Source: an uncultured Gemmatimonadales bacterium (GTDB lineage Bacteria; Gemmatimonadota; Gemmatimonadetes; Gemmatimonadales; GWC2-71-9). Taken from it: 64,000 nucleotides of DNA. Positions 1 through 58,695 of the stretch are shown piece by piece (the stretch's first letter is position 1; each line of letters starts with the position of its first letter). The translations under genes were made by a program, and so were the position numbers. The notes beneath the pieces were generated by a model. The model was not told the origin of the DNA. It saw only the letters and a list, made by a program, of their open reading frames with translations, and did not search any database. The stretch lies in NCBI GenBank assembly GCA_963798915.1, contig CAWCVB010000002.1, positions 224,001-288,000 on the forward strand, given 5' to 3'.

Positions 1-165
1 GATCACGGCGGCGAGCTCGGGGCGGAGGACTTTGATGGCGACTTGGCGGTCGTGTTTCAGGTCGTGGGCGAGGTAGACGGTGGCCATGCCGCCGTGACCC
101 AGTTCATGCTCAATGCGGTAGCGGCCGGCCAGCGCGGTGGTGAGGCGGTCGAGATCGGCGCTCAT
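1..165 (-). CDS. K0: Ser/Thr protein kinase, 5' part only (truncated by window edge)
   Basis: Manual translation from ATG at 165 gives [55 protein letters not shown] (Gly-loop and VAIK). The ATG overlaps the K1 stop (ATGA at 162-165). Not in the ORF track. Confidence 0.93.
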
Positions 166-2882
166 CGGGTCACCGTGGCGATTCGCGTGTCCCAGTTGCC
201 GAGCAGACGCACCTCGCGCAGCGGAGGTTCGGTGGAGCGCTGCTTGAAAACGAAGCGATTGCCGCCCAGAGCCACGGCATAGTTGCGCCCGGGGAAGTCG
301 GCGACGGCAGCGCTGAAGAGCCACTGCGGCTCTCCGAACGGGCTGTCCGCGTTCGCCGGGTCGTAACGGACGGCATAGAAGCCCTGAACCACCCGGCCGC
401 GCGCCAGGTCACTTCGGTCACGGTCTCCCGCCGTCTTCACGAACGCGTTCCTGACATCCACCACGATGAATTCCTCACCGCCGGTGGCCCAGGCGGCCTG
501 GGAAAAGCGCGAGCCTCCCGCGATGACCAGGCGGCGGCCACGACCATCCAGGCTCCGCGCGACAATCGCCGTCTCCGACGCCCCGACCTCCTCGGAGACG
601 CGCCACTGCTCGTCCGGCGTGTAGCCACCAAGTGTGTTCTGGCCGATGAACGGCTCCATCGGGCGGCCGTCGGTGTGGAGGATCACCAGCTTGTCGTCCA
701 GCCAGGCACGGTAGCTCGCGGTGTCTGCCAGGGCGCTCACCTCCCTCGCTCCCTCGGGCAGCGCGAGGGCCCGCGGCGGCGCACTGCTCTCCGGATCGGC
801 GATGAATGTTCCGCTGTCGAGCGTGTACAGGACGTGTCGACCGTCGGGCATCCACTTCACTCCGGCGATGGTGGGCGCGCTGAACCATGGCGTCACCCGA
901 CCCGAGGCGATGTCGATGACCTGCAGTGCCCTGGCGCCCGTCGCCATCCCGACACTCACGACGAGGCGCCGGCCGTCAGGCGTCATGTCGATCGAATTGT
1001 AGTTTGCCGCCGGCGCCGGAATCGTGTCGAGCTTTCCGGTGCGGTCGGCCGCCACGAGCACTCCTTCCCCCGGAACGCCGCCCTGCGCCCACGCGACGAC
1101 CCCGCTTCGGGACACCCCGAATTGGGCGGCCCCACGGCCGCTTTCCACGCGGACACCTTCCGTCACGCTGACCGATGCGCCGGTGACCATTCCTTGCTTC
1201 GCATCGAACGGTGCGGCGTACAGCTGCCCGCCCGGCCCGACGTACAGGAGATGCCCGTCGCCATCGAGTCGGGCCATCGTCCCGCGGATCGCGTCGGCGG
1301 AGGTGGTAGATTGCCAACGCCGCAGCGCCGCCCTCGCGCCGGTCGTCAGGTTCATCACGCTCAGGCCGGACCGACTGGTGACGATGGCTCGGCGGCCGTC
1401 GGGGAGCGGCTCCGGCAGGCTGCACAAGTCGCAAGTGAACGCAGCCAGCGAGTCTCCGTTGGCTCCGAGCACCATCAGCTGCGTGGCGCGGCGGTTTGAC
1501 ACGAGGAGCCGACCATCCGGCAACCAGGCGCCGCCGAATGGATCGCTCAAGGTGGAAGACAGTCTGCGCACCTGGCCGTCGGCGAACGTGACCCGCTTGA
1601 GGTTGTTCGCCGCGAAGAAGGCGACGGCGTCACTGGCCGGCGAGAAGAAGGGCGCGATGGCGCCCTCGGTCCCGTCGAGAGCCCGCACGGAGAAATCGGC
1701 AAGCTGACGCAGGTACAGTTGGGTGCGGTTTCCGTGCCGGGCCACGAACACCAGCTTCGACCCATCCGGCGAGAGTGCGATCGTCGGCATTCCCTCCGGA
1801 TTGTTGGAGAACGGATCGAGGGCGAGTGAGTCCGGCAGCGTGACGCTCGCACCCCACGACACGATTCCCGGGGAGGACCTCGCCGGGCGCAGCCAACCCC
1901 ACAGCGCCGCGACCGCGAGGACGGAGAAGGCGACGATCCGGACCGCGCCCGCACGTCTTCCCGTGGCGGCGGCATTGCGCGTTCTCAACCCGGCGGTGCG
2001 CCGCGGCCGCGAGGCGGAGACATCGCCGAGCGCCGCCGCGAACTCCGCGGCGCTGGTGAAGCGGTCGGCCGGGAGCTTGGCCAGCGCCGTCAGCACCGCA
2101 TCCTCGACGGATTCGGGCACGGTGTCGCGCATGCGGGTCGGTGGCACCGGCTTTTCGGTCATCACCTTGGCGACGATCGCCTGCGCGGTGCTGCCGGTGA
2201 ACGGCGGATCGCCCACCAGCATCTCGTAGGTCATCGCACCGAGGGCGTAGATGTCGCTGCGGGCGTCGAGGGTGCGCTCGCCCATCGCCTGTTCCGGCGA
2301 CATGTAGTGCGGGGTGCCGAGACTCATGCCGGTCTCGGTCATGCGGGAGCCACCACTGGTGGCGGCGAGTGCGATCCCGAAGTCGGCGACCAGAGCGCGG
2401 CCATCGTGCAGGAGGATGTTCTCGGGCTTGATGTCGCGATGGATCACGCCGTGGCGATGGGCGTAGTCGAGCGCGCCGGCGACTTCGGTGGCGATGCGGA
2501 TCGCGTCAGGGATGGGGAGCTGCTTCTCGCGCGTCAGCCTGTCGCGCAGCGACTCGCCTTCGACGTAGGGCATGACGTAGTAGACGTGAGTCGTGGGTCG
2601 CGGGTCGCGAGAGTCGTCTGCGTACTCCACCTGTCCCGAATCGAACAGCGGGAGGATGTGGGGGTGCTGCAGGTTCGCGGTGGTCTGGATCTCCGACAGG
2701 AACCGCTCGGCGCCGATCACCGCGGCGAGTTCCGGACGCAGGACCTTGATCGCCACCCTGCGGTGGTGTTTCAGGTCCTCGGCGAGATAGACCGTGGCCA
2801 TTCCGCCCTGCCCCAGCTCGCGCTCGATGCGGTAGCGGTCGGCGAGGCCGGTCCGAAGCCCGGCCGACGGACCCTCGCTCAT
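162..2882 (-). CDS. K1: Hanks-type Ser/Thr kinase + TM + TolB/PD40-like beta-propeller (906 aa)
   Basis: True start [10 protein letters not shown] at 2882 (ATGA overlap with K2 stop). Motifs [56 protein letters not shown] repeats. The ORF-track extension to 3632 is a shadow of K2. Confidence 0.92.
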
Positions 2883-5527
2883 GGTGCCGCCTTCGGCGCG
2901 AGCTTGGCGAACCAGTTGTCGACCCAGACCACGTCGGGCGCCGCACCACCGGCCGCCCGACGCTCCCGCGTGAAGAGAAACGCGCCGTCGGCCAGCGCGG
3001 CATACCCCTGATGCCAGGGATCGACCGAGAACGCCGATGCGTCGAACAGCGGACGCACCGACAGCGCCGAAAACGTGGGCTTCGTGGCGATCTGCGCGGC
3101 CTCCAGGCGCGTGTCGGCATCGAGGAAGTACAGCTCGCGCCCATTGGGAGACCACACCGGCGAAGTGCCGCCGCGGCTCGAGATCTGCCAGGGCCCCCCG
3201 CTGGCCTCTGGAAACGGCTGCACGTACACCTCGTTCCGGCCCGAGGTGTTCGACGTGTACGCCAGCCATCGGCCGTCGGGGGAAAGCGCCGGGTGCGCTT
3301 CGGTGGCCGCTGTGGCCACGACCCGTCTCATGGCGGTATCGCTCGTCAGGCGCCGAGCCAGGATGTCCCCCGCGCCGGGCGTGCCGTTGTCGGTCCGCAC
3401 CACCAGCCACTCGCCGTCCCGGGAGAGCTCCAGCTCCTGCAGCAGCAGGTCCGAGCCGGCGACGACGTGTTCGGGACTGCTGCCGTCCGCCGGGCGGCTC
3501 ATGACACTGGTCGCGTTGGCGCTGTCGCGGAGCCAGAAGACCGACCGCCCGTCGCCGGACCACGTCGGCCGCTTGTCCGACCCCCCGAAGCTGACCCGGG
3601 TCGGCGGGGCGCCATCGAGCGGGGCGATCCACATCCCGCCGTCGACGGCATCCTGGCCGGACCAGATCGCGAGGCGGCCGCCAGTGGGGGACAGGGCGAA
3701 CGAATAGGCGGGACCGTGCCAGGCCGTATCCGCCGGGTAGGCCGCGCCGTCCCGGTTGACCCGCACCAGCTCGAGGTCGGGATGGGCACCGGGGTCACGG
3801 ACATAGACGATCGTCCCCGACGGCGATACGGTGAGCTCGGCAAAGCCGGGGCTCACGAACACACCGTCGAACGCCGGCACCGCCGCGCCGCCGATGGTGA
3901 GATGCGCCAGGTCGAACGGCACGATCATCGCGACGCCATCGGGCCGCACGTAGAGCAGTCGCCCCCCAGGCAGATACCACGCCTGCTCCACGTTCTCCAG
4001 CAGCCGGTTCACGCGGTGGGTGCGCAGGTCGAGCGCGTAGATCGCGAGGGAGCTGCACCGTCGGGCGCAGGCCTGGAAGAGAATGCCGCGCCCGCCGGGA
4101 AGCGGCTGGGGAAAGCGCATGCCGGCGCCCGGATTCGGTGTGTGGGGCAGCACCACCTCCGCCCGGCCGCCAGCGTCGCTGACCCGGCGCAGCGACTGGG
4201 TGGTCGAGGACACGTAGATGATGGTGCCGTCGTCCAGCCACGCGGGGCCGCCCGGCTCGGTGGCCGCGCTGTCACCGATGGTGCTCACCGGCCCGCCCGT
4301 CACGCGGATCTTCCTGAGCTGCCCGTCGGCCACGAAGGCGATCCACTGACCGTCGGGCGAAAATACCGGCATGAGCGCGCGCTCGGTGCCGGGAAGCACG
4401 ATCGCAGAGAGCGCGGAGCGGCGCTTGAGCACCAGGCGTGCCGCGGGTGAGTCCTCCTGGTACGCGACGATTGAGCCGTCCGGCGAGAGCGCGAGGAGGG
4501 GGGACCTCGAACGCGCCACCCGACGCTGCATCTTCGGGAGCGTGACAACCTGCCAGGTGGCGGTGAGCGCGGGAGCCGGTGGGTGCCGCCAGCGCCAGAC
4601 CAGGATCGGCAACGCGACCAGCGCGAGGACCCAGCCGGCCGCCATCGGAACGAGCAGCCGGTGCGAACGGGATGCGCGCGCCGTCTGCAGGGACAGGGTC
4701 GGCGTCGGGTTGGCGAGCGCCGCCGCGAATTCGGCCGCCGTCGCGAAGCGGTCGGCCGGAAGCTTCTGGAGCGCGTAGAGCGTCGCCATCTCGATTCCCG
4801 CCGGCACCGTCTTCCGGAGCTGATGCGGCGGCACCGGCTCGGCAGTCATCACCTTCGCCACGATCGCCTGCGCCGTAGGGCCGGTGAATGGCGGCTCCCC
4901 CGTGAGCATCTCGTAGAGCACCGCGCCCAGCGCGTAGACGTCGCTCCGGGCGTCGAGGGTCCGCTCTCCCATCGCCTGCTCGGGACTCATGTAGGTCGGC
5001 GTGCCGAGCGACATCCCGGTCTCGGTCATCCGCGTCCCCGCGCTCGAGGCGGCTAGCGCGATTCCGAAATCGGCCACCAGCGCGTTGCCGTCGTGCAGGA
5101 GGATATTTTCCGGCTTGATGTCGCGGTGGATGACGCCGTGGCGGTGCGCGTAGTCGAGGGCGGCGGCCACCTCGGTGGCAATCCGCACGGCCTCGGCGAC
5201 GGCGAGCTGCTTTTCGCGGGTGAGCCGGTCGCGGAGTGATTCGCCCTCGATGAACGGCATCGCATACCAGAGCAGTCCGCCGGCATCGCCCGAGTCGATC
5301 AGCCCCAGGATGTGCGGATGCTGCAGGTTCGCGGTGGTCTTGATCTCCGAGAGGAACCGGTCGGCGCCGATCACGGCGGCGAGCTCGGGGCGGAGGACTT
5401 TGATGGCGACTTGGCGATCATGCTTGAGGTCGTGGGCGAGGTAGACCGTGGCCATGCCGCCGGCGCCGAGCTCGCGCTCGATGGTGTAGCGGTCAGCGAG
5501 TGCGGCCCGGAGCGAGTCGATACTCAC
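2879..5527 (-). CDS. K2: Ser/Thr kinase + TM + PD40/TolB-like beta-propeller (882 aa)
   Basis: Complete kinase motifs, TM LLVPMAAGWVLALVALPILVW, many SPDG/WSGDG repeats. GTG start preceded by GGAGGTG Shine-Dalgarno. Confidence 0.93.
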   Translation of the reverse strand: MSIDSLRAALADRYTIERELGAGGMATVYLAHDLKHDRQVAIKVLRPELAAVIGADRFLSEIKTTANLQHPHILGLIDSGDAGGLLWYAMPFIEGESLRDRLTREKQLAVAEAVRIATEVAAALDYAHRHGVIHRDIKPENILLHDGNALVADFGIALAASSAGTRMTETGMSLGTPTYMSPEQAMGERTLDARSDVYALGAVLYEMLTGEPPFTGPTAQAIVAKVMTAEPVPPHQLRKTVPAGIEMATLYALQKLPADRFATAAEFAAALANPTPTLSLQTARASRSHRLLVPMAAGWVLALVALPILVWRWRHPPAPALTATWQVVTLPKMQRRVARSRSPLLALSPDGSIVAYQEDSPAARLVLKRRSALSAIVLPGTERALMPVFSPDGQWIAFVADGQLRKIRVTGGPVSTIGDSAATEPGGPAWLDDGTIIYVSSTTQSLRRVSDAGGRAEVVLPHTPNPGAGMRFPQPLPGGRGILFQACARRCSSLAIYALDLRTHRVNRLLENVEQAWYLPGGRLLYVRPDGVAMIVPFDLAHLTIGGAAVPAFDGVFVSPGFAELTVSPSGTIVYVRDPGAHPDLELVRVNRDGAAYPADTAWHGPAYSFALSPTGGRLAIWSGQDAVDGGMWIAPLDGAPPTRVSFGGSDKRPTWSGDGRSVFWLRDSANATSVMSRPADGSSPEHVVAGSDLLLQELELSRDGEWLVVRTDNGTPGAGDILARRLTSDTAMRRVVATAATEAHPALSPDGRWLAYTSNTSGRNEVYVQPFPEASGGPWQISSRGGTSPVWSPNGRELYFLDADTRLEAAQIATKPTFSALSVRPLFDASAFSVDPWHQGYAALADGAFLFTRERRAAGGAAPDVVWVDNWFAKLAPKAAP

Positions 5528-5608: not shown

Positions 5609-8245
5609 CTACCACTGGGCGACCCACACATCGAGGGTCGGCACGTTGGTGCGCACGGCCATGCGAAGGCCGTCGTTGGAGAATGACACCCCCGCGGCAA
5701 ACGGGATCGGGAAGTCGCTCCCCCGCCGCAAGGCACCGGTGGCCGGGTCGAGTCGATAGAATCCCGCCGAGGCGACGGTCTCGGAGATGACCAGCTCGAC
5801 CGAGCCGTCGGGCATCCAGTGCAATCCGGGAACGAAGTCGAACACGGCGCGGAGGACGGCCGTGCCTTCGGCGGCGCCGGGCGGGACGCGGAAGACCACC
5901 ACCGAGTCGCCGACCGGATAGTTGAATCCCCAGCCGATGAGGCCGAAGCCCCACGGGGAGTCCTCGACTTCGATGACCCGGAGCGGCGGAATGCGCACGG
6001 TCCGGATCTCCCCGGATGGTGGACGAATCGCGAGTGAGGCCGGAGCGTCGGCGAATTGCCAGGCGAGTCCACCATCGGCCATCACCTCGAGCCCGGTGAT
6101 GGGGGCGCTGTCGGGAAATGTCCCCTGGGCACGCCGGCTGCCGTCGGTCAGTTCCAGCGAGGAAATCCTGATATTCGCTCCGTCACGGTGCAGCAGGACC
6201 ATCGCAGATCCGTCGACCGTGCGCGAACGATCGACCACGTCGGGAACGGGTGCGCCAAGATTCCGCTCCGGGCCGCCGGCGAACGGCTGCACGGCGAACT
6301 GCACCACCGGCATCCCCTGGCCCGAGGCCGATGTGCGAATCAGGATCACCGATTCCCCGTCGCTGCCCATCAGGACCGAGAGCTGTCCGGTCGCGGCGGC
6401 CACCTGCCGGGCTACCACCCCGGCGTCGGCGATCGTCCGCCGGGAAACCGCAACCGCGCTCGCTTGGTAGGTCCCCGCGAGGTAGGCGATGCCGCCCGCG
6501 GAGATGGTCAGGAGCTCCATGGGGATCGACGAGAGGACCACTTGCCGTTCGCGGCTGAACCGGCCGGCATCGTCGAGCCGGTAGGCAGCGATCGTGAGCA
6601 GCCCGCTGCCGCCGGAATCGGCCGTGGCCACCACGAATTCATCGGGGCGCCGGAATCCCGCGGATCGCACGCGCGGGAGTGACATCGAATCCCTGGCCAC
6701 GCCGCGGCGATCGAAGACGATGAGCTGGCCCGGCGACCCGCTGGCACCGATCACGATCCAGCGACCATCCGGCGAGGACCTCCAGGCGAACGCCGACGCA
6801 CCCTGACGCTCGATGATGAGGGAATCACCCCGGCTCGGATCGATCGACGTCGTGGCACGAAACGCGAGCCGCCCCGGCGCCAGCTCATCGGCGATCAGCA
6901 GGGAGTCGCCGCCCGCGATCGAACTCACGGCGCTGCCGGGAATGAGGCGCGGGCTCGCGCCGCCCAGGGCAGGCACCAGGTAGTACCCGATCGAGCCGTG
7001 CTCGGGCAGGCCGACGAACAGCAGATTGCGACCGTCGACGGTCCAGGCAACGTCATAGACTGCCGCGAGGTTGCCCACCGTCCGCAGGGTGCCCGAGCCG
7101 ACGACGTCCTGCACCACCAGGGCATAGGTACAGCGGCCGTTCGCACCACACTCCCGGTTGGCGTAGGCCACGCGCTGGCCGTCGGGCGAGAGCGCCACGG
7201 CACCCTCGGCGGTCCCCGAGACGGTCACCTGTCGGCGAGGTGCATTGAGGATCACCGGCGCGCTCGACGGCCGCAGCACACGCCAACCGATCGCGGCCAC
7301 GGCGACCACGGCGACACCGGCGAGAGCTGGCACCAGCCACCGCCGCCGGCCGGGCGCCGCCCGCCAGCCCGCGATCGGCCGGGTGGCCGTCGGCGTGATG
7401 CCCGTGCTTGGCGTGGCCTGCCCCTCGAGCAGGTGGAGGAGTTCCTCGGCGTGCTGGTACCGATCGGCAGGACGCTTCGCGAGACAGCGCATCACGATCT
7501 GTTCGAGTGGCGGCGCGATGGCGCTTCGGCGTCGGGCAACCGGCTCCGGCGCCTCGGTGACCTGCGCGGCGAGTACCTGCTGTGGCGTGGCGGCCACGAA
7601 CGGCGGGCGTCCGGTGAGCATCTCGTACGCCACCACGCCAAGCGAATAGATGTCGGACCGATGATCTACGTGCGGATCGGCGGAGGCCTGTTCGGGCGAC
7701 ATGTAGGTGGGCGTGCCGACCGCCACGCCGAGTGTCGTGATGGTGTTCCGGCCGGTGGCTTCGGAGATGGCCTTGGCCACCCCGAAGTCGGTGACCAGCG
7801 CGTGGCGCCCCGACATCATGATGTTGTCCGGCTTCACGTCGCGATGGACCACCCCCATCTGATGGGCGTGGGCCAGCGCATCGGCCACCTCCACCAGGAG
7901 TCGCACGGCCTCGTGCACCGGCAACTCCCCCTCGCGCGCCAGCCGCTCACGGAGCGATTGCCCCGGCACGTAGGGCATGACGTAGTAGAGGAAGCCGTCG
8001 GCGGCGCCGGAATCGAGCAGTGGCAGGATATGGGGATGTTGGAGCTGGGCGGCGATCTCGATCTCGCGCAGGAACCGGGTCGATCCCATCGACGCGGCGA
8101 GGTCTTCACGCAGGACCTTGATCGCCACTTTGCGATGGTGCTTGAGGTCCTCCGCCAGGTAGACGGTGGCCATGCCGCCCTGCCCGAGTTCGCGCTCGAT
8201 GCGGTAGCGGTCGGCGAGGGCTCCCCTGAGCGAATCGATGCTCAT
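5609..8245 (-). CDS. K3: Ser/Thr kinase + TM + divergent beta-propeller (878 aa)
   Basis: VAIK, HRDVKPDN, DFG, GTPTYMSPEQ; TM WLVPALAGVAVVAVAAIGW; ALSPDG/SSPDG repeats. Confidence 0.92.
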   Translation of the reverse strand: MSIDSLRGALADRYRIERELGQGGMATVYLAEDLKHHRKVAIKVLREDLAASMGSTRFLREIEIAAQLQHPHILPLLDSGAADGFLYYVMPYVPGQSLRERLAREGELPVHEAVRLLVEVADALAHAHQMGVVHRDVKPDNIMMSGRHALVTDFGVAKAISEATGRNTITTLGVAVGTPTYMSPEQASADPHVDHRSDIYSLGVVAYEMLTGRPPFVAATPQQVLAAQVTEAPEPVARRRSAIAPPLEQIVMRCLAKRPADRYQHAEELLHLLEGQATPSTGITPTATRPIAGWRAAPGRRRWLVPALAGVAVVAVAAIGWRVLRPSSAPVILNAPRRQVTVSGTAEGAVALSPDGQRVAYANRECGANGRCTYALVVQDVVGSGTLRTVGNLAAVYDVAWTVDGRNLLFVGLPEHGSIGYYLVPALGGASPRLIPGSAVSSIAGGDSLLIADELAPGRLAFRATTSIDPSRGDSLIIERQGASAFAWRSSPDGRWIVIGASGSPGQLIVFDRRGVARDSMSLPRVRSAGFRRPDEFVVATADSGGSGLLTIAAYRLDDAGRFSRERQVVLSSIPMELLTISAGGIAYLAGTYQASAVAVSRRTIADAGVVARQVAAATGQLSVLMGSDGESVILIRTSASGQGMPVVQFAVQPFAGGPERNLGAPVPDVVDRSRTVDGSAMVLLHRDGANIRISSLELTDGSRRAQGTFPDSAPITGLEVMADGGLAWQFADAPASLAIRPPSGEIRTVRIPPLRVIEVEDSPWGFGLIGWGFNYPVGDSVVVFRVPPGAAEGTAVLRAVFDFVPGLHWMPDGSVELVISETVASAGFYRLDPATGALRRGSDFPIPFAAGVSFSNDGLRMAVRTNVPTLDVWVAQW

Positions 8246-13762: not shown

Positions 13763-13766
<4 letters not shown>
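11073..13766 (-). CDS. K5: Ser/Thr kinase + TM + PD40/TolB-like beta-propeller (897 aa)
   Basis: True start GTG at 13766 (MTVERLRTALADRY; GTGA overlap with K6 stop). Complete kinase motifs; TM PLFIGVAAIAVLALGGVAMLL; SPDG repeats. Confidence 0.92.
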
Positions 13767-16048
<2,282 letters not shown>

Positions 16049-16049
16049 C

Positions 16050-31830: not shown

Positions 31831-31834
<4 letters not shown>

Positions 31835-50365: not shown

Positions 50366-50428
50366 TCACTCGAGTGACACGTGCCGAGCCGCGGCTTCCA
50401 GCCGCGAGCCCGACTGGTCAACGCTCAT
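50366..50428 (-). CDS. Putative 20-aa mini-ORF MSVDQSGSRLEAAARHVSLE (kinase-N-terminus-like)
   Basis: ATG overlaps the K18 stop (ATGA at 50425-50428). SRLEAA matches K7 MAELSRLEAAL. Confidence 0.45.
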   Translation of the reverse strand: MSVDQSGSRLEAAARHVSLE

Positions 50429-53109
50429 GGCGCGGGCCCCCACTTGAGACTCGGCGTGAAATGCTCGATCCTGACGAGCTGGGGTGGCGCGTCGGTGCCC
50501 TGTCCCACCATCAGAAAGTGCCGGTCGTCCGGGGCCACGGCATAGCGCGCATAGTCCAGCCCGGTCGCGGCGTCGCTGTGGAACAAGGCGTGCGGCGCGC
50601 CGGACCGGAACACGGGATTGGTGTCGACCTCCACGGCCATCAGGTCGAGCGTGCTGATGGCCCGGAAGAACAGTTCCTTTCCGGAATGCGCCCAGCGTGG
50701 TTCCACGCCTCCGTCCGTTGACACCTGCCACACCCCGCGGTTCACGTCCGGAAAGGGCCGCACGTACACCTCGCGCCGGCCGGAGGCAGTGGATACGTAG
50801 GCAATCCGGTGGCCGTCCGGCGAGATCACCGGGTTGGTTTCGGCCGCCGGTCCGGTGATGAGCGGCTGGAGCGTCGTATCGGAGCCGAGCCGCATGCCCA
50901 GGATGTCACCGGATCCGGCCTGGGCGCCAGAGGTCCGTACGACCAGCCACTGCCCGTCCGGTGATTCGCCGACCTCGGTGATGTCACGGTCACTCCGGAC
51001 GACCAGCGTGACACCACCTGTCCCGTCGGCCTGTTTCCGGAAGACCGCCTGCGGGTGCACGCGCTCGGAAATGAAGAGGATGGAGCGTCCGTCCCCGGCC
51101 CAGCTCGGGCGCACATCGGGAGCCGGATCCAGGGTGAAGCGGGTGAGCGGCCCTGACGGCAGTTGCTTGATCCAGATATCCGTGCCGGTGGTGCCGGCGC
51201 GCGAGAGTTCGACGGCCACCCGCTGGCCATCCGGTGACAGCGCTACTCCACGGATCTCACCGCCCTCCCGCCAGTCCCGGTCCACCGGGTGCGCCGTGCC
51301 GTCGCCTGCCACCCAGTCCAGCCGCGAGGTGGCACCCGGGGAGCCCGCGACATAGTAGAGCGCTCCGTCATCGCTCGCTGCCAGGTCCACCCCGGCGTAG
51401 GTGCCGCTTATGCGAGTACCGGACGCCACCGCCCTCGGCGGGGCAGTGAGCGCGAGGCGGCCCTCGTCGAAGGGGGCTGCCTGCAATGTCCCATCAACCG
51501 TCACGAAGAGCAGGTATCCGGCGGCATACCGGGCGCTCACCGCCTGGGTAACCACGCGGTGCTCGCCGGTACCAAGCCGCCAGGCCATGATGGAGAAATC
51601 TCCCGGGGCATCATTGGCATGGCGAAGCCGGAAGAGCGCCACTCGGTTCCCGGGGAGGATCTGCGGCCAGGCGATGCCGGTCTCATGCTGGAGCGTATCG
51701 AGCGGCGCCACCGTCCCGCGATCACTGCCATCGGGCCGTACCCGCTGCAGGCCTCCGACATCCGCGTCGAAATAGATGTATCCGTCGCTGGCCCAGTAGG
51801 CGCCGCTCGTGCCCAGGGGCGCCCCGACCACGGTCCGCGGCATCCCTCCACCAAGCTGCACCACCTTCATGATGCGACCATCGCGATCGGTGACGAAGCC
51901 GACCTGCCGGCCGTCGGGAGAGATGAACGGGTCGTAGGCGCCTTCCGTCCCGGGAATCGGAGTCGCGTTCAGGGTATTGCTGTGCTTCAGCCACAACCGT
52001 CCGCCAACCGAATCCCCACCGGTGTACACCAGGATGGATCCATCCCGGGAGACGGCCATATGGGTCCCCAGCATGGAAAGGCTCGGTGCCTGATCCGGAG
52101 GAAATCCCACGGCGAACTGCGACGGGAGCGACGGCTCCGATCGGAGTCGTCCCCAGAGCCAGAGCGCGACCGCGAGCACTGCGACGATCCAGCCCGCCAA
52201 GTTCATCAGACGGGAGAGTGGGCGATGGCGACTTCCCGTGCGCTCCCGTGTTCCGGAGGTGGAAGAGGCGATGGTCGTGGCACCGGAGAGCGCACTGGCA
52301 AATGCTGCTGTGCTGGCGAACCGGTCTGCGGGCAATTTCTGTAACGCGGTGAGCACCGCCGCATCCACGTGCTCCGGCACCGTCTTCCGCACGTCGCGCA
52401 GTGGCACCGGCTCCGCCGTGACCACCTTGGCCACGATCGCCTGTGCCGTGGGACCGGTGAAGGGCGGCTCGCCCGCGAGCATCTCGTAGGTCATCGCACC
52501 GAGCGCGTACACGTCGCTCTGAGCGGTGATCTCCCGCTCACCCATGGCCTGCTCGGGGCTCATGTAGTGCGGCGTGCCGAGCGACATCCCGGTTTCCGTC
52601 ATGCGGGTCCCGGCGGTCTTGCTCACCGCGAGTGCGATGCCGAAGTCGGCCACCAGGGCCTGGCCATCGTGCAGCATCACGTTCTCGGGCTTGATGTCGC
52701 GGTGGATCACGCCGTGGCGGTGGGCATAGTCGAGGGCGCTGGCCACCTCGCCGGCGATGCGGACGGCATCCCCGATGGGCAGCTGCTTCTCGCGGGCGAG
52801 CCGGTCGCGCAGTGACTCGCCCTCCACATACGGCATCACATAGAAGAGGAAGCTGCCGGCCTCACCCGAGTCGAAGAGCGGCAGGATGTGCGGGTGCTGC
52901 AGGTTGGCGGTAGTGCGAATTTCGGAGAGGAAGCGCTCGGCGCCGATCACGGCGGCAAGCTCGGGGCGGAGCACCTTGATCGCCACCTTGCGGTGGTGCT
53001 TGAGGTCTTCGGCGAGATAGACGGTGGCCATGCCGCCTTGGCCAAGTTCGCGCTCGATGCGGTAGCGGTCGGCGAGGGCGGCAGCCAGCTGCTCGACGGA
53101 GTCATTCAT
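50425..53109 (-). CDS. K18: Ser/Thr kinase + TM + PD40/TolB-like beta-propeller (894 aa)
   Basis: True start MNDSVEQLAAALADRY at 53109 (ATGA overlap with the upstream stop at 53106). Complete kinase motifs; TM LAGWIVAVLAVALWLWG. Confidence 0.92.
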   Translation of the reverse strand: MNDSVEQLAAALADRYRIERELGQGGMATVYLAEDLKHHRKVAIKVLRPELAAVIGAERFLSEIRTTANLQHPHILPLFDSGEAGSFLFYVMPYVEGESLRDRLAREKQLPIGDAVRIAGEVASALDYAHRHGVIHRDIKPENVMLHDGQALVADFGIALAVSKTAGTRMTETGMSLGTPHYMSPEQAMGEREITAQSDVYALGAMTYEMLAGEPPFTGPTAQAIVAKVVTAEPVPLRDVRKTVPEHVDAAVLTALQKLPADRFASTAAFASALSGATTIASSTSGTRERTGSRHRPLSRLMNLAGWIVAVLAVALWLWGRLRSEPSLPSQFAVGFPPDQAPSLSMLGTHMAVSRDGSILVYTGGDSVGGRLWLKHSNTLNATPIPGTEGAYDPFISPDGRQVGFVTDRDGRIMKVVQLGGGMPRTVVGAPLGTSGAYWASDGYIYFDADVGGLQRVRPDGSDRGTVAPLDTLQHETGIAWPQILPGNRVALFRLRHANDAPGDFSIMAWRLGTGEHRVVTQAVSARYAAGYLLFVTVDGTLQAAPFDEGRLALTAPPRAVASGTRISGTYAGVDLAASDDGALYYVAGSPGATSRLDWVAGDGTAHPVDRDWREGGEIRGVALSPDGQRVAVELSRAGTTGTDIWIKQLPSGPLTRFTLDPAPDVRPSWAGDGRSILFISERVHPQAVFRKQADGTGGVTLVVRSDRDITEVGESPDGQWLVVRTSGAQAGSGDILGMRLGSDTTLQPLITGPAAETNPVISPDGHRIAYVSTASGRREVYVRPFPDVNRGVWQVSTDGGVEPRWAHSGKELFFRAISTLDLMAVEVDTNPVFRSGAPHALFHSDAATGLDYARYAVAPDDRHFLMVGQGTDAPPQLVRIEHFTPSLKWGPAP

Positions 53110-54591
53110 GGATGTTGCTCGACGGCCTGGTGTGCCAGTGTCACCAGCGACCAGTAGGGCGGGGGATATCCGTCGCGCGCCCGGGCTTCGGCAGCCGCCC
53201 CACGCAGGTCCGCCGCCAGCGCGCGCTGGCGCGTCACGAACGCCTCGTGTGCCAGTGCTGATGATGCCGACATCCCTTCCGGAACAGGCCCGTGGCCGCC
53301 CAGGGCTGACCAGCACCCAGCTGTATCCCTTGGCCAGCCGCACGAGCGGCAGCCGATACCATGCATGATCCAGGGCTCGGCCCTCATCCGCCTGGTCGAG
53401 CATGGCATCAAGTACCGCGTTATCCAGGTGATCCTGCCAGAGCGCCGCGCTGTCCCGCCACTCGGCGACGACCACCAGTTGAGGATCGTACTCCAGATCT
53501 GATGGTTCCTGCGTCTCGAAGTGCCGGACGCCGAGCTCGGAGAGCCAGCGTCGGATGCCGGGGCGGGAGATGGTGGAGCGTCCCATCCACAGCGTGATGC
53601 CCTCGTCGTGGTAGGCGGACGAGGCCACCTCCGAACAGAAGAGGTGCGAGGGATCACTGTAGTCCATCGTGAAGTCGTACGGGATGTGACCGGCCCGCGC
53701 GCGTGCCAGCATGCGCGACGCGGCACGATGCGGCAGCATGGGGTCGGCTTCAAGAGCGGGCAGGTCCGCCCTCGGACGCAGCACCATCACGCGCAGCTTC
53801 TTGTCGGCCAGGTACTGCTCGGCGCTGGACACGGCGACGCCGATCTCGATGTGCGCTTCGATGACCGACACCTGGCGCGTGGCCGAATCGATGTAGACCA
53901 GGCCGACGTGCGAAAAATTTCCCGGGTAGTCATTGCCGCGGGCGATGAGCGCTGACGTGGGATAGCCGCCGCGGGAGACCAGCATGTCACCCGAATGAAT
54001 GCGAACGCCATGCACCAGGGCGGACGGCGTGGCGGACGGTTCGTCGCGTCCGAGAAGAAGCGCGGGACTGCTGTCGGGGTGCTGCAGCATCGCCTCCTCC
54101 ACCGCGGCCCGGGCGCCATAGAGCAGGCGATAGAGGCGTTGCCTTGCCTCGAGCTGGTCGGGATCCCAGTGACGCGACTGGTCCTTGATAACCTCGCGGA
54201 GCCGGCCGGCAAGCGCGACGTAGCCCCGGAGCTGCGAGGGACAGGCCGCGACGACGGGGCCGGTGGCGAAGAAGTCATCTTCCAGGGCCTGGAGGCGGGG
54301 ATCTGTCGGCCTCACCGGGGTGCCGGCGAGACTGTCGAGGTCTGCCGCCACGTCAGCGATCCTGAGGGCGGATGTATTGGTGGCTCCGCTGCAGCCGGCC
54401 GCTCGCGCAGCGACGAAGCGGCCCTCGAGCGCGCGCCAGAGCGAGTCCTGGTTCCAGGCAAAGGGAACACCGCGTGGCGGCGCGGGCGGCACCCTTACCG
54501 AGCGAGCGGGAACCGAGAGGAGCAGCACACCGAGGACACCAGCGAGGGTGATCCCGAGGCGTGACCGGGCAGTCAAGAGGCGAGCTCGCAC
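53106..54591 (-). pseudogene. YiiX/YebB-like permuted papain-like (NlpC/P60) cysteine hydrolase with N-terminal signal/anchor; one-base insertion at about 53304 (probably artefact)
   Basis: GDMLVSRG, FSHVGLV (His), PYDF...LFCSEV (Cys) and PSDL motifs in permuted order. The C-terminus continues in another frame (LGGHGPVPEGMS...YPPPYWSL) ending at 53106. Start GTG 54591 or TTG 54576. Confidence 0.8.
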
Positions 54592-54595
54592 GCTT

Positions 54596-55957
54596 TCAGC
54601 GACGGGCCCGCAATGCACGCACGCGAACCAGATAATAGAGCACCGACCCAGCCAGTACAGCGGACATGTACAGCACCTCATGCAGGGTGGAATGCGCCAG
54701 CACCCAGAGCACCACGGCCGATGCGAGCAGGGCCACCGTGGGTCCGCCGGGTGCGCGGAAGCTGCCGGCGGGCCGCGGGCGCGTGTACCGCAAGCGCAGC
54801 GCGGCCAGGCAGACAGCCAGATAGATCAGCAGCAGCGCCATGCTCGCCAGCACGGCCAGCACCTGGAAGCCGCCGCTCAGGCTGAGCAGCAGGGTGACGG
54901 CCGCGAAGGCGATGATCGAAATCCACGGCGTATGGAAGCGCGGATGCACCCGTGCCAACGCCTGAGGCAGCATGCCGCTTTCCGACGCGGCCAGAAAGGC
55001 GCGCGGCGTGCCGATCATGTCGGCCGCCAGTGCGCCGAAGACGGCGACAGCGGTGCAGGCCACCACGATGCTGCGCCCCGGACCGGCGGCCAGCCGCTGG
55101 GCCAGGTCCGCGAGCGGCGTCGCGCTGCCATGGGCCAACTCGCTGCCCAGCACCCCCTGCGCCACCAGCTGGAGCACAACGTACAGCAGCACCAGCGCAC
55201 CCGCGGCGCCAAGAATTCCCCGTGGCACGGTCCGGGTGGGATCGCGAATCTCGCCGCTGGGCGTGAGCGCGCTCTCCATCCCACCAAAGGCGAAGAAGAG
55301 CACCAGCGTGCCGGCGCCCAGCTGCGACACCGAGGGCCACCCATTCCATGTCAGGTTGGACCATTGGACCGCCAGCAGACCAACCACGGCCAGCAGCAGC
55401 AGCGGCGCCAGCTTGGCCACTGTGGTGGCAACCGCGAGCCGGGTACCCTGGCGCACGCCCCTGATGTTGATGACGGCGAGGCTGCCAAAGAGCAGAACCA
55501 GACCGAACATGCGGGGCACACCGCCGGCAAGAGGTGGAAGGACCGTTGCCACCGCATCCAGCAGCACGTGGGCAATGGCGGCGTCGGACGCCGCCGACCA
55601 GATGATCGCAAAGACCACCCACGCCAGGAAACCCGACAGCGGCCCGAACGCCTCCTCGATGTAGGCCACGGACCCGCCGGATCGGGTGACTTGGCTGCCC
55701 ACCTCGGCAAAGCAGGTCAGTACCAGGATGATCAGGGCGCCGCAGACGAGATAGGCCAGGATCGCGGCGGGTCCCAGAATGGCGGCCACCACGGCGGGCA
55801 GCGCGAAGATGCCGGCGCCAATCGTCAGGTTGATGGCATTGGCGCCCAAAGCCCATGGGCCGATGGCGCGGACCAGCACCGACTCTGCCGCTGGTAGCGT
55901 CGGCGGAGTCGAGGCTGGCAAGACCGGGGCGGTGAATTCGCTGCCGGTAATTGTCAT
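54596..55957 (-). CDS. APC-family amino acid/polyamine permease (453 aa)
   Basis: IGAGIF in TM1, FAEVGS...SGGSVAYI, FFAFGGME, EIRDPTRTVPRG, HPRFHTPW; about 12 hydrophobic segments; ATGA overlap with K19 stop. Confidence 0.93.
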   Translation of the reverse strand: MTITGSEFTAPVLPASTPPTLPAAESVLVRAIGPWALGANAINLTIGAGIFALPAVVAAILGPAAILAYLVCGALIILVLTCFAEVGSQVTRSGGSVAYIEEAFGPLSGFLAWVVFAIIWSAASDAAIAHVLLDAVATVLPPLAGGVPRMFGLVLLFGSLAVINIRGVRQGTRLAVATTVAKLAPLLLLAVVGLLAVQWSNLTWNGWPSVSQLGAGTLVLFFAFGGMESALTPSGEIRDPTRTVPRGILGAAGALVLLYVVLQLVAQGVLGSELAHGSATPLADLAQRLAAGPGRSIVVACTAVAVFGALAADMIGTPRAFLAASESGMLPQALARVHPRFHTPWISIIAFAAVTLLLSLSGGFQVLAVLASMALLLIYLAVCLAALRLRYTRPRPAGSFRAPGGPTVALLASAVVLWVLAHSTLHEVLYMSAVLAGSVLYYLVRVRALRARR

Positions 55958-58695
55958 GGCGAGGCGAGCTTCAACTGCTTCAGTTCGGCACGCCAGTTGA
56001 AGATCACGTTGAGGGACGTCGCGTCACTGCCGCCGGCGGTCACCATCAGGAACCGGCGGCCATCGGGATGCACGTCGTACCCGCGGTAGTACTCCTGCAT
56101 CCCCAGCCCGGTGCCATCAAACAGCAAGTGCGGGACACCATGGGTGAACGAGCGTCCGGTGGTGACGGGGACCGCGTACATGTCACCCCGCTGACTTCGG
56201 AAGAAGAGCTCCTTCCCGTCTCGCCGCCAGAGCGGCTCGACACCTCCGCCGACCGATACCACGTAGCGCGCCGAGTCCACGTTGGGAAATGGACGAACAT
56301 GAACCTGTGGGGTGCCGGCTTCCGCGGAGACATAGGCCAGCCATTGGCCATCGGGCGAAAGTGCGATGGCATAATTGTCGTAGCGCGACGGGAGGATGGA
56401 ACGCGGCGTGCTGTCAACGCCGTTCCTGATCTGCATCAGGTGACGCGACCCGGGCCCCGAGCCTTCCGATCGGAAGAGGGTGAAGCGTCCCTGGGGATCG
56501 AAGAGGATCTCGTCAAGTCCGACGTCCGGGGGCGAAGCCGGTTCGGCGGCATCGCTCCCGTCGGCCCGGCGCATCCAGGCCGTGCGCCGGCCATCCCGGC
56601 TCGCGAGATAGGCGACCCGCTTGCCGTCGGGCGTCCAGACAGGGCGGTTAGCGCTGACGACGTCAAAAGAAAGTCGGCTGAGCGCGCCGGTGGCGAGTTG
56701 TTCGATCCAGATCTGGTCATCTCCCAATTCACTTCGCGTTACCGCGATCTGGCTGGCATCCGGGGAAAGAGCAAGTGCGGAAACGACCAGCGCCGGATCG
56801 GACGGAACCGCGGTCCGCTGGCCATCGCGGTCCACCCAGACCAGCCCGGCCCGGTCGCCGGATGTGGGCTGGTACACCAGGGTGCCGTTCGACGACACCG
56901 CGAATTGCACGGTGCCGTTGCTTCCGTCGGTCTGCACGTTGCGACGGACCAGCACGGGAGTTCCCGCGAGGCGACCGCCCCTCGCATCAAGCGGCGCCTC
57001 CAGAAGATTGCCCTCGGCGGTGCCGATCACGATCATGCCGCCGCCGATGTAGCGGACATAGGAGCCCGGGGCAAGATCGGTGACGGCGCCCGAGGCGACG
57101 TCGACGAGGCCGATATGGTTGGAGGTGATCGAGCCTTTCCAGACCATGACCAGCGCCTGCCGGCTGCCAGGCAGCACGTCGGGAAAGTCGAGTTCCTGGA
57201 TGGCCTGGGTCGAGTCCGGCCGGGCGATCCGCGTGACGGCGCCACCGGAGGATGATACGCGCGCCAGGTTGCGGCTGGCGTCGGTGAAGTAGATCTGGCC
57301 GTCATCGGCCCAGTCGGCTCCGCCGAACTGCGCCACGGAATCAGCGACCAGCGTGCGAGCGACTCCGCCGGTGAGCGCGATCACCTTGAGCGCGAGACGG
57401 CCTCCGTCAGCGGTGACGAATCCCACCGATTGCCCGTCAGGAGAGAAGAACGGCGCGAACGCGCCCTTGGTGTCAGGGAGCGGGCGGGCGGCGGGCTGGT
57501 CCAGTTCACGGACCCAGAGTGCGTTGTCTGCCCCGTTGGGCCCGACAAACACAACGCGCCGCCCGGAGGGGGCAATGGCGAGCCTGATATTGGCGATGGC
57601 GCGAACCCGGACGCTGTCGCCCAGGGTGATGGTCGCGTGCACCACCTCATCCGGCCCGACGCTGCCGGGGTCGGCTCCCTTTCCTCGCAGCATGAGACTT
57701 GCCGCGAGTGCCAGGACCGCCGCCACCGCAACGCCGATCAGCGCAAGGCTGCGGCGGTCGCGGATCCAGACGCGCGCGGGGCCAGCGGCATGCGCATCCA
57801 TTCCCGCCATGGTGTAGCCCGGATCGTTGAGCGCCTCGGCAAATTCCCTGGCGGTGGCGAACCGATCAGCGGGCAGGCGTTCGACGGCCTTGGCTACCGC
57901 CGCCGCGACGTTGGGTGGCACGGACTTCCGGAGCCGGGTGACCGGGGCCGCTTCCTCGGTCACGATCTTCATGATGATCTGCTGCGCCGAGGTGCCCATG
58001 TGAGGCGGCTCGCCGGTCAGCATTTCATAGAGCACGCTGCCGAGCGAATAGATATCGCTCCGGCCGGTGATCTCCTTGTCGGCGGTGGCCTGCTCGGGGC
58101 TCATGTAGTGCGGGGTGCCAAGCGACATCCCGGTCTCGGTCATCCGGCCGCCCGCGGCGGCACTCAAGGCCAGCGCAATGCCGAAGTCGGCCACCATGGG
58201 CCGGCCGTCGTGGAGGAGAATGTTCTCCGGCTTGATGTCGCGGTGGATCACCCCGTGGCGGTGGGCGTAGTCCAGGGCATCGGCCACGCTGGTGGCGATG
58301 CGCACCGACTCCTCAATGCCCAGCTGGGTCTCGCGGTCGAGCTTGCTGCGGAGGGTCTCGCCGTCGATGAACGGCATGACGTAGTACAGGAGGTCTACGG
58401 TCGACTGTCGACCGTCGACCGTCGACCGTTGACTGTCGACCCTGGCTATTCCCGAATCAAACAGCGGGAGAATGTGCGGATGCGAGAGTGCCGCGGTGGT
58501 CTTGATCTCGACCACGAAGCGCTCGGCGCCGATTACGGCGGCGAGCTCGGGCTTGAGGACCTTGAGCGCGACCTTGCGATCGTGCTTGAGGTCCTCGGCA
58601 AGATAGACCGTGGCCATGCCGCCCTGGCCCAGCTCACGCTCGATGCGGTAGCGGTCGGATAATGCGCTGGAAAGACGGGTGAGAGCGTCAGTCAT
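55954..58695 (-). CDS. K19: Ser/Thr kinase + TM + PD40/TolB-like beta-propeller (913 aa)
   Basis: Complete kinase motifs; TM LALIGVAVAAVLALAASLML; SPDG repeats; heptamer-repeat loop insert identical to K14. Confidence 0.94.
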   Translation of the reverse strand: MTDALTRLSSALSDRYRIERELGQGGMATVYLAEDLKHDRKVALKVLKPELAAVIGAERFVVEIKTTAALSHPHILPLFDSGIARVDSQRSTVDGRQSTVDLLYYVMPFIDGETLRSKLDRETQLGIEESVRIATSVADALDYAHRHGVIHRDIKPENILLHDGRPMVADFGIALALSAAAGGRMTETGMSLGTPHYMSPEQATADKEITGRSDIYSLGSVLYEMLTGEPPHMGTSAQQIIMKIVTEEAAPVTRLRKSVPPNVAAAVAKAVERLPADRFATAREFAEALNDPGYTMAGMDAHAAGPARVWIRDRRSLALIGVAVAAVLALAASLMLRGKGADPGSVGPDEVVHATITLGDSVRVRAIANIRLAIAPSGRRVVFVGPNGADNALWVRELDQPAARPLPDTKGAFAPFFSPDGQSVGFVTADGGRLALKVIALTGGVARTLVADSVAQFGGADWADDGQIYFTDASRNLARVSSSGGAVTRIARPDSTQAIQELDFPDVLPGSRQALVMVWKGSITSNHIGLVDVASGAVTDLAPGSYVRYIGGGMIVIGTAEGNLLEAPLDARGGRLAGTPVLVRRNVQTDGSNGTVQFAVSSNGTLVYQPTSGDRAGLVWVDRDGQRTAVPSDPALVVSALALSPDASQIAVTRSELGDDQIWIEQLATGALSRLSFDVVSANRPVWTPDGKRVAYLASRDGRRTAWMRRADGSDAAEPASPPDVGLDEILFDPQGRFTLFRSEGSGPGSRHLMQIRNGVDSTPRSILPSRYDNYAIALSPDGQWLAYVSAEAGTPQVHVRPFPNVDSARYVVSVGGGVEPLWRRDGKELFFRSQRGDMYAVPVTTGRSFTHGVPHLLFDGTGLGMQEYYRGYDVHPDGRRFLMVTAGGSDATSLNVIFNWRAELKQLKLASP
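58393..58441. repeat. Heptamer tandem repeat (GTCGACY-like x7) in K19, identical to 37095-37143
   Basis: Direct sequence comparison. Confidence 0.9.

Follow-up and report, generated by a model that had tools for sequence, protein, structure and literature searches.

A large tandem array of Hanks-type receptor kinases that probably collects sensors in a Gemmatimonadota genome

Introduction

Bacterial Hanks-type kinases are usually viewed as scattered genes with private partners. In Mycobacterium tuberculosis, PknD combines a Hanks kinase with one transmembrane (TM) helix and a six-bladed propeller sensor, according to the accessible text of PMC6213207. The locus described here encodes proteins of PknD-like topology with a similar sensor fold, and structure 1rwi of the PknD ectodomain matches a model of one array sensor with Z 21.1 and an rmsd of 3.1 over 242 residues; however, the array sensor consists of two TolB/PD40-type propellers with 9% identity to PknD, and where PknD is a single gene, about 20 paralogues stand in one run here. 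Expanded, lineage-specific sets of WD40/TPR receptor kinases are described for Planctomycetota (Ca. Uabimicrobium) and myxobacteria, with duplication and/or recombination proposed as their source and adjacent duplicates remarked for myxobacteria; the available portion of that paper mentions neither Gemmatimonad* nor gene conversion (PMC11032199). Those proteins, as far as that portion describes them, share with ours a cytoplasmic kinase and predicted periplasmic propeller or TPR arrays, whereas in our genome more than half of the kinome lies in 111 kb with 22 genes contiguous, swapping is seen directly in the DNA, and sensors match foreign genomes better than their neighbours.

Two further arrangements are related. 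The accessible part of PMC13147305 describes PknS/EcfK, an ECF sigma-kinase pair in which a TM Hanks kinase carries periplasmic TPRs. The genome bearing our run (G000) has eight strong Sigma70_ECF matches, most adjoining dispersed kinases; none lies in C2:203978-289000 (C2 being contig CAWCVB010000002.1), the nearest, at C2:192799 and 289464, stand beside other kinases, and the 22-gene run, whose kinases form a separate clade, differs from such pairs in having no ECF gene. As in the PknB/Stp operon, seen in the available text of PMC6213207, a PP2C phosphatase gene comes after a kinase and is co-oriented with it, but the array lacks PASTA domains and one phosphatase follows 22 kinases. Model NF033483 scores 240-326 bits on array kinases, against a cut-off of 450.

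Cassette arrays with a constant head and a variable tail include staphylococcal lpl genes, polymorphic-toxin orphan modules and integrons. Like these and plant receptor-like kinase (RLK) clusters, the present locus has constant and variable parts in tandem, changing number and order, and interspersed cargo. Here, however, every array unit is a whole receptor gene; no integrase was seen in the mapped part of the region, and the 4-nt overlaps at most junctions would leave no room for attC sites; and in contrast to plant RLK clusters, recent duplicates and gene-wide positive selection are absent. Architecture, kinase expansion and gene conversion are each already known separately, and a literature search on Gemmatimonadota, Hanks kinases and tandem arrays, covering titles and abstract openings, returned no description of a kinase array in this phylum.

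Results

Extent and setting of the array

The window, that is, the whole 64,000-nt stretch of C2 that was analysed, contains 17 whole kinase genes and the 5' end of one crossing its left edge (positions 1-45315), followed by two further kinases, all on the minus strand (Table 1). To the left of the window lie the remainder of the edge-straddling gene, four extra kinase genes and then the PP2C gene, so that the unbroken head-to-tail run comprises 22 kinase genes over 59 kb (C2:210721-269309) with nothing intervening. The original prediction of 18 plus two same-strand kinases in an array running off the left edge agrees with this gene count and with the motifs. Within G000, 33 of 58 HRD-bearing open reading frames fall in C2:203978-315013 (111 kb, 3.4% of the assembly); random placement gave at most 10 kinases per 58.7 kb in 20,000 draws, against the 22 observed. 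Array kinases fall together in a clade of their own (21 rows, every one from the region, support 86/98), and homologues are from Gemmatimonadota.

Table 1 Features of the array and its surroundings, in window coordinates unless prefixed C2; start codons were picked by hand, a few among alternatives.
Position	Strand	Feature	Remarks
C2:209901-210734		PP2C phosphatase	outside window; frame break immediately before last motif
1..165	-	5' end of kinase gene C2:221568-224165	propeller sensor
162..2882	-	kinase-TM-double propeller, 906 aa	loop insert of 17 residues, repeat-derived
2879..5527	-	kinase-TM-double propeller, 882 aa	128-nt exact tract common with 42667 gene
5609..8245	-	kinase-TM-divergent propeller, 878 aa	PD40 1e-4
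8390..11017	-	kinase-TM-TolB-like propeller, 875 aa	
11073..13766	-	kinase-TM-double propeller, 897 aa	vs 18557: kinase 88% identity, sensor 26%
13763..16048	-	kinase-TolB-N/TPR, 761 aa	no membrane helix, probably soluble
16050..18469	-	kinase-TM-TolB-N/TPR	frame break near 17890
18557..21193	-	kinase-TM-double propeller, 878 aa	
21190..24157	-	kinase-TM-TPR-type module	frame break near 22240
24154..26529	-	kinase-TM-TolB-N/TPR, 791 aa	77-nt exact 5' tract common with 21190 gene
26526..29177	-	kinase-TM-divergent double propeller, 883 aa	
29174..31834	-	kinase-TM-double propeller, 886 aa	
31831..34752	-	kinase-TM-FGE-sulfatase-alpha/beta hydrolase, 973 aa	
34749..37392	-	kinase-TM-propeller	frame break near 37270; 155-nt exact tract common with 55954 gene
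37389..40052	-	kinase-TM-double propeller, 887 aa	
40049..42670	-	kinase-TM-propeller, 873 aa	sensor 57% identity to 34749 sensor
42667..45315	-	kinase-TM-double propeller	first gene of unbroken run
45602..50240	+	inserted oxidoreductase operon, three genes	Fe-S flavoprotein, 2-oxoacid:ferredoxin oxidoreductase alpha and beta
50425..53109	-	kinase-TM-double propeller	start overlaps C92 gene stop
53106..54681	-	Peptidase C92 (YaeF/YiiX) family gene	frame break near 53300; upstream anchor of locus
54596..55957	-	amino-acid permease gene	cargo between kinases
55954..58695	-	kinase-TM-double propeller, 913 aa	

A 1418-aa open reading frame at 50425, considered as a C92-kinase fusion, resolved into two genes, a frame-broken C92 peptidase and a kinase. 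The window contains no tRNA, a promoter/terminator scan of 40000-47000 gave nothing exceeding shuffled sequence, and neither a substrate gene nor an effector gene lies within the 22-gene run.

Kinase domains and sensor modules

All 20 window kinases carry HRD[ILV]KP.N and DFG, and VA[ILV]KV and GTP.YM.PEQ are each in frame in 19 of the 20, frame breaks splitting VAIK in the 34749 gene and GTP.YM in the 16050 gene. Pfam PF00069 scores far above cut-off in every scanned array gene; judged by this domain and by the Gly loop, VAIK lysine, alphaC Glu, HRDxKPxN, DFG and subdomain VIII PE motif, the proteins fall among Hanks-type RD-class Ser/Thr kinases with predicted catalysis. A hydropathy scan found, in 19 of 20 window genes, a single hydrophobic helix that separates the kinase from the C-terminal module and is flanked by basic residues towards the kinase; the exception, the 13763 kinase (0.54 against 1.77-2.87 in the others), lacks a membrane helix and is thus not a receptor in the sense of the other genes. 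The predicted repertoire of receptor kinases with conserved active sites and diverse outer modules stands for all but this gene, and profile searches of the 19 whole genes returned the expected 14 propeller modules, four TolB-like/TPR modules and one FGE plus hydrolase.

The AlphaFold2 model of the 42667 sensor (pLDDT 92) has two six-bladed TolB-like propellers, matching TolB chains with Z 24.5-26.7. Foldseek ranked LRP6, megalin and other double propellers highest (TM about 0.33), a modelled similarity that we read as fold analogy only. With blades assigned by hand, variability peaks in the B-C loops of the propellers, at about 3.0 bits compared with about 1.5 in the A-B loops. In the FGE-hydrolase kinase, the Ser (GYSWG), Asp and His motifs of the alpha/beta hydrolase are all present; among the 150 matches listed in a search of nine genus kin, this kinase had no full-length counterpart.

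Sensors are old and conserved

Sensors within the run reach at most 57-58% pairwise identity, with a median of 28% over 112 alignable pairs, and are conserved across genomes at 55-81%. For 24 of 24 G000 sensors the best match was abroad, in a foreign pool of 310 that far exceeds the home pool and with several of these wins being near ties. Plant-style birth and death, as originally proposed, finds no recent duplicates in these data. The proposal of diversifying sensors is not supported by gene-wide dN/dS, which was 0.19-0.23 (dS 0.6-1.6) in eight cross-genome pairs, a purifying signal. G000 sensors showed no clustering by genome (17 changes, against 17.4 shuffled). Three array genes are frame-broken, yet breaks are not denser than the assembly background (four in 91 kb against 11 in 257 kb elsewhere, in a test that missed some known breaks and in which errors and mutations are indistinguishable), so that gene 'death' is not upheld. 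By sequence comparison, the sensor types are old and conserved across genera.

Kinase halves recombine between genes

Separate kinase and sensor trees, a check suggested with the original prediction, have topologies that disagree: the kinase alignment rejects five of six sensor-tree clades (AU p 1e-70, 5e-77, 0.015, 4e-7 and 6e-7; the sixth, 0.16). Among foreign genes with a sensor at least 55% identical to that of a G000 gene, the matching kinase was also the best in 30/30 dispersed cases, an easy control since dispersed kinases have no close paralogue, and in 12/26 cases from the region (9/12 when restricted to the genus). Sliding windows place the partner switch near the kinase end.

Genes whose sensors are unrelated share exact tracts of 155, 128 and 77 nt, the longest including a 63-nt heptamer-repeat insert, and 3 of 465 gene pairs lie at the permutation floor in a conversion test. 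Genome-typical heptamer inserts are common to paralogues in G000, G001, G005, G008 and L057. Clustering by genome is stronger in the kinase tree (27 changes, compared with 39.9 after shuffling, 0/200) than in the sensor tree (36 against 40.1, 11/200). The nearest DNA neighbour lies within G000 for 8 of 23 array kinases against 0 of 20 dispersed ones, which indicates that homogenisation is partial.

Silent-site tracts and discordant domain trees identify concerted evolution by ectopic gene conversion, as read from the DNA, and at that level kinase halves of about 0.8 kb recombine, which brings sensors to other kinase partners and positions and alters their number. These sequences do not distinguish transfer between genomes from old paralogy with differential loss.

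Anchors, junctions and relatives

Between the C92 and PP2C anchors we counted no kinase in G008, one each in G001 and G005, and 23 in G000. Double-propeller sensors number 20 in G000 against 1-5 in nine genus kin, whose assemblies are fragmented (120-560 contigs), so their counts may be low. The C92 gene adjoins kinases or PP2C in 4/4 kin having it, and PP2C lies within or beside kinase clusters in G001, G003, G005, G007, G008, G014 and G050; none was seen in the displayed array maps of G039 and G057. The first gene of the oxidoreductase operon had no match in the nine genus kin at E 1e-100.

At 15 of the 21 junctions in the G000 run, stop and start overlap by exactly 4 nt, and at one more a 1-nt gap separates the genes; among kin, 26 of 50 are exact overlaps. 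A test for junctions travelling with sensors was weak (0.50 against 0.43, p 0.015, from 16 non-independent pairs). Downstream of sensor stops, G000, G001 and G071 carry stranded 5' ends of kinase genes.

Other genera of the family hold tandem arrays of 24 and 13 kinases, with different flanks, and gene order and neighbours differ in every genome examined; comparing array content and order across relatives, as had been recommended, thus showed both to vary among the genomes compared. The G000 locus is an unusually large case of a sensor-collecting array that recurs in its family. Cargo elsewhere includes four PIN genes in the G039 array and a Fic/Doc gene in a G050 cluster.

Discussion

The whole is probably best explained as an array of Hanks-type receptor kinase genes that collects sensors. 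In each encoded protein, a single membrane helix would link an RD kinase in the cytoplasm to a module in the periplasm; most of these modules would be pairs of six-bladed TolB-like propellers, the others TolB-N/TPR or FGE plus hydrolase. Conserved kinase DNA would serve as a recombination handle through which old periplasmic sensors are gained, lost and swapped, the putative engine being crossing-over between kinase halves, both intrachromosomal and with incoming DNA of relatives. The mobile unit may be a sensor, its stop/start junction and the next kinase start, with no need of an integrase. By analogy with PknB/PknD-type kinases, ligand binding would gather kinases whose activation segments are then autophosphorylated, and the nearly interchangeable kinases would act on a small common substrate set, for which the BTAD/SARP regulators and FHA proteins of G000 are candidates; PP2C at the run's end would reset the signal. 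The idea of a common phospho-output is favoured as far as the shared phosphatase and the near-identical activation segments across array kinases fit it. Most likely, the array would broadly survey proteins, peptides and envelope fragments in the periplasm or outside the cell and pool these inputs into a general response. A bolder version is unlikely: integrase-free cassettes drawn from a family-wide pool, with kinase DNA as attachment site, in a translationally coupled array that provides pooled innate surveillance against predators, phages or the proteins of competitors, with a single phosphatase reset.

In G000, one region accommodates more than half of the 58 kinases and acts in the manner of a cassette array, the kinase count between its fixed anchors spanning 0 to 23 within the genus; this offers a testable model of how many inputs could be rewired onto one output without a dedicated recombinase. 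The array is also a natural library of double-propeller binding domains.

We regard as unlikely an innate-immunity or conflict repertoire on the model of plant RLK clusters, in which sensors would detect phage, predator or competitor molecules and a pooled output would set off a defence reaction, dormancy or death. The array does lie within an accessory region of variable content, PIN and Fic/Doc genes occur as cargo in relatives, and a TPR receptor kinase, PknS, shields Xanthomonas from amoebae in the accessible part of PMC13147305; the variability of the B-C loops also fits, but is expected of any propeller. Against this reading, PADLOC returned no match for seven of seven sensor modules, the C92 gene or two neighbours (PP2C had one weak match, 6e-5), the whole kinase matches PD-T4-6 and MAD6 models solely along its kinase domain, the run contains no effector gene, and the sensors are under purifying selection, conserved across genomes and without recent duplicates. 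The originally suggested immunity system thus gained no ground, nothing tested pointing there. Known defence kinases (PD-T4-6, MADS, BREX PglW) were likewise rejected as identities for the array kinases, whose matches were confined to the kinase domain, with NCBIfam MAD6 and PglW scores far below cut-off.

Mostly neutral or selfish accumulation, whereby homology among the kinases would turn the locus into a sink for recombination, swollen in some lineages, with most copies redundant or silent, is very unlikely. It would suit the swing in the main sensor type from 1-5 to 20 copies within one genus, the unrelated cargo in and beside arrays, and the relic fragments; it is opposed by catalytic motifs intact in all window kinases, dN/dS near 0.2, frame breaks no denser than background, and the retained stop/start overlaps.

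Still less probable is a set of ordinary tandem paralogues of ancient origin, passed on vertically with differential loss, occasional conversion and no sensor import. Conversion alone accounts for the exact tracts, and sensor identity abroad overlaps that of ordinary orthologues (PP2C, for example, 76-81% in the genus); however, a very large ancestral array would have to be lost nearly wholly in 9/9 genus kin, and the flanks, order and neighbours differ as described above.

An assembly artefact stringing together dispersed kinases is barely credible: although the assembly has indels and no junction or frame break is spanned by any read or contig piece from two public DNA runs (0.06 of sampled words present; pieces of 151-310 nt on window 14000-33900), the longest exact repeat is 155 nt, a 784-kb contig encloses the array, junctions carry in-register overlaps, and independent assemblies hold runs of 24, 13, 8 and 5 kinases, the arrays of 24 and 13 in other genera themselves making mis-assembly unlikely. 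The longest arrays seen lie in assemblies of at most 17 contigs, which suggests that fragmented Gemmatimonadota assemblies under-report such arrays.

Size and reality of the kinase array

The tandem kinase array described in the original prediction was confirmed in its gene count, module content and motifs. Positions 1-45315 of the window hold 17 whole Hanks-type Ser/Thr kinase genes and one cut by the left edge, and two further genes have their left ends at 50425 and 55954; every one of these 20 is encoded on the reverse strand. The 19 whole genes encode 14 propeller, four TolB-N/TPR-type and one FGE-sulfatase plus hydrolase module. HRD[ILV]KP.N and DFG are kept in all 20 window kinases; the lysine motif and GTP.YM.PEQ are each in frame in 19 of 20, with one gene each carrying the motif across a frame break. 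The unbroken head-to-tail run comprises 22 genes (C2:210721-269309, on contig CAWCVB010000002.1, where the window spans C2:224001-288000), followed by a PP2C phosphatase gene. In this assembly (3.3 Mb, 17 contigs, 84.8% complete), 33 of the 58 HRD-bearing ORFs lie within C2:203978-315013, hereafter the region, and 22 kinases fall within 58.7 kb, compared with at most 10 under random placement (20,000 draws).

The array is very probably real. No exact repeat in the region exceeds 155 nt, and other assemblies contain comparable loci: among 73 loci where one array gene has a close relative (71 are titled as Gemmatimonadota, Gemmatimonadales or a lower taxon), 21 have at least three kinase matches, with a maximum of 8 in 23.7 kb; split genes inflate a few of these counts, and one contig carries two of the loci. 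Genome G015 has 8 kinases in 32 kb, and G014 has five together with two PP2C genes. In other genera of the family, we observed 24 co-oriented kinases in 92 kb with cargo in between (G039), 13 in 38 kb (G057), clusters of 6, 6 and 8 (G050) and five each in G132 and G071; no long kinase run was found in G041. Kinase richness is the rule across the family, with 16-116 first-look candidates per genome in 55 genomes (one marked unpublished, at neither extreme), whereas few such genomes are seen in most other classes.

The density of frame breaks is 0.44 per 10 kb in the region (4 in 91 kb) versus 0.43 elsewhere (11 in 257 kb), both rates being lower bounds, as breaks seen by eye at 22240, the PP2C end and C2:306641-309870 were missed. 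Sequencing error is a simpler reading of these breaks than gene decay. The kinase gene at C2:306641-309870 has many single-base breaks in ~1.3 kb, unlike its neighbours, reflecting either a poorly polished assembly or decay.

Predicted receptor anatomy

Hydropathy and structure prediction show a receptor-like layout of the array products, with an N-terminal kinase, an arginine-preceded hydrophobic segment and a C-terminal module of 480-650 residues. The segment has a hydropathy of 1.77-2.87 in all scanned products except that of gene 13763 (named, like others, by its left end in the window), which lacks it (0.54). The 42667 sensor was modelled from a 90-row alignment as two tandem propellers (pLDDT 92, pTM 0.89); its closest structures are TolB chains (Z 24.5-26.7, rmsd ~2.9), followed by the PknD ectodomain (Z 21.1). 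The FGE-sulfatase product is possibly an enzyme-coupled sensor, and has homologues at 43-45% in locus L042 and genome G013. With the start codons that we chose, 15 of 21 junctions in the run are exact 4-nt stop/start overlaps, which suggests translational coupling; of the other six, one leaves 1 nt between the genes and five leave 55-144 nt.

Features in and around the kinase array.
Feature	Position	Strand	Remarks
FGE-sulfatase + alpha/beta hydrolase receptor kinase	window 31831-34752	-	Ser, Asp, His motifs kept in outer module
2-oxoacid:ferredoxin oxidoreductase operon	window 45602-50240		inside kinase region
C92 (YaeF/YiiX) peptidase gene	window 53106-54681		
BTAD/SARP-type regulators with kinase-type TolB-N/TPR module	C1:315578, C2:172617, C2:436062, C7:190641, C17:17239 (source genome)		

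Kinase and sensor halves differ in history

Pairwise identity among region kinase domains runs from 42 to 88%, with a median of 63% over 465 pairs; for the 24 sensors, the 112 pairs that could be aligned range from 23 to 57%, with a median of 28%. In separate kinase and ectodomain trees, as proposed in the original prediction, the two histories disagree, with five of six sensor-tree clades rejected by the kinase alignment. Genes 11073 and 18557, for example, have kinases that are 88% identical and sensors that are 26% identical, and sliding windows place the switch around the kinase end and juxtamembrane part. Foreign genes with a sensor at least 55% identical to that of a source-genome gene were also closest to the kinase of this gene in 30/30 cases for dispersed kinases, used as controls, compared with 12/26 for region kinases, or 9/12 when the genus alone is counted. 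At the DNA level, 8/23 array kinases versus 0/20 dispersed kinases are nearest to a paralogue in the same genome. Genome labels (69 propeller kinases, 6 genomes; quick and FastTree trees) changed 27 times on the kinase tree versus 39.9 when shuffled (0/200 as low) and 36 times on the sensor tree versus 40.1 (11/200 as low); the source genome alone had 13 changes on the kinase tree and 17 on the sensor tree.

Genes 34749 and 55954 share a 155-nt identical tract that includes a 63-nt heptamer-repeat insert, and two other pairs share tracts of 128 and 77 nt, visible as gene conversion tracts. Such inserts are common to paralogues of one genome and differ between genomes even where sensors are orthologous. 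Lengthened kinase loops occur in 9/37 scored source-genome kinases, most of these loops being repeat-derived, and in 35/192 in kin. Heptamer tandem repeats (GGTCGAC/GGTCGTC/GCTGAAG-like) number in the hundreds genome-wide; those at ~2580, 37090, 42380 and 58390 lie inside kinase genes, several in frame within one kinase loop.

The evidence indicates that the sensors are collected old types and not fresh duplicates. The likeness to plant receptor-like-kinase clusters originally drawn holds for the sensor repertoire but not for the recent duplicates found in plants, since the sensors diverge as described and each of the 24 tested finds its best match among 310 foreign sensors, in several cases as a near tie. 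Sensor dN/dS is 0.19-0.23 (8 cross-genome pairs) versus 0.09-0.21 in dispersed controls, rough values given a dS of 0.6-1.6.

Copy number varies between fixed anchors

The locus is bracketed by the C92 peptidase and PP2C genes. Array content varies across relatives, as originally envisaged: between these anchors there are no kinases in G008, where the two are adjacent, one in each of G001 and G005 (a different kinase in each), and 23 plus the oxidoreductase operon in the source genome. No kinase was found in the DNA examined around the PP2C orthologue of G003 and G007. Double-propeller matches number 20 in the source genome versus 1-5 in nine genus kin, whose assemblies are fragmented and 69-100% complete. 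The C92 gene, present in only 5/21 genomes and adjoining kinases or PP2C in all five, may encode a functional partner, for instance a ligand-generating enzyme. In G005 (L097:3200-3560, contig C100), an apparent second, decayed copy of the C92 3' end, seen by eye upstream of PP2C, would place the kinase between the two arms of a direct repeat. In the source genome, G001 and G071, stranded kinase 5' ends ~17-40 codons long lie after sensor stop codons, which would fit a moving unit made up of a sensor, the junction and the start of the next kinase; testing this unit directly gave a weakly positive result.

The first gene of the oxidoreductase operon is 79% identical to its counterpart in G013, from another family, and was not found in nine genus kin; the operon was possibly acquired by transfer. 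Arrays of other genera have different flanks, and cargo including PIN genes, amidases and a BTAD regulator. Four PIN-domain genes are interspersed in the G039 array (L171, L172, L174; G039:C3 317-370 kb) and a Fic/Doc gene lies in a G050 cluster (L182), resembling the toxin-antitoxin cargo of cassette arrays. Following the window's kinases, positions 58765-63771 hold an amidohydrolase gene (-) and a gene for a 1096-aa BNR/sortilin-like glycosidase-type protein (+).

Proposed mechanism and relation to known systems

The data show a tandem layout, intact catalytic motifs, kinases and sensors that have changed partners, gene conversion, and arrays that differ in the number and order of their genes. 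We consider it probable that recombination in kinase halves reassorts sensors, and that ligand-driven kinases feed few substrates, with PP2C as the reset. Homologous recombination within kinase halves would drive array change, and sensors may have been imported from relatives or may reflect old paralogy with loss. Ligand binding would lead to dimerisation and autophosphorylation, as a review describes for PknB and PknD (PMC6213207). Near-identical activation segments in most members, together with kinases exchangeable between sensors, suggest convergence on few substrates.

That the array is instead an immunity system, as the original prediction had allowed, is unlikely: circumstantial points favour it, but PADLOC matched none of seven sensor modules, and the PD-T4-6 and MAD6 matches are confined to the kinase domain. 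The array likewise falls outside known kinase defence systems, which it resembles over that domain only, outside the PASTA kinases, and outside ECF-STK pairs, there being no ECF sigma gene in the run. In mode of action its products would resemble PknD-type receptors and the expanded WD40/TPR kinases of Planctomycetota and myxobacteria, for which adjacent duplicates and recombination have been noted (PMC11032199). Atlas clusters of the kinase+PD40 architecture are dominated by Gemmatimonadota, with single rows from Acidobacteriota and Bacteroidota. A literature search, mostly of titles and abstract openings, found no account of such arrays in Gemmatimonadota. What stands out here is how large the array is (22 contiguous genes, 33 in the region), how widely kinase number varies between the same two anchors (0 to 23) and the evidence that the sensors are old, collected types.

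The 22-gene run itself contains no ECF sigma, FHA or BTAD gene. Elsewhere, the source genome has eight strong ECF matches, mostly adjoining dispersed kinases, six FHA matches in four ORFs and seven clear BTAD matches. The TolB-N/TPR module of the kinases also occurs in five BTAD-type regulators; sensor modules are thus common to different output types.
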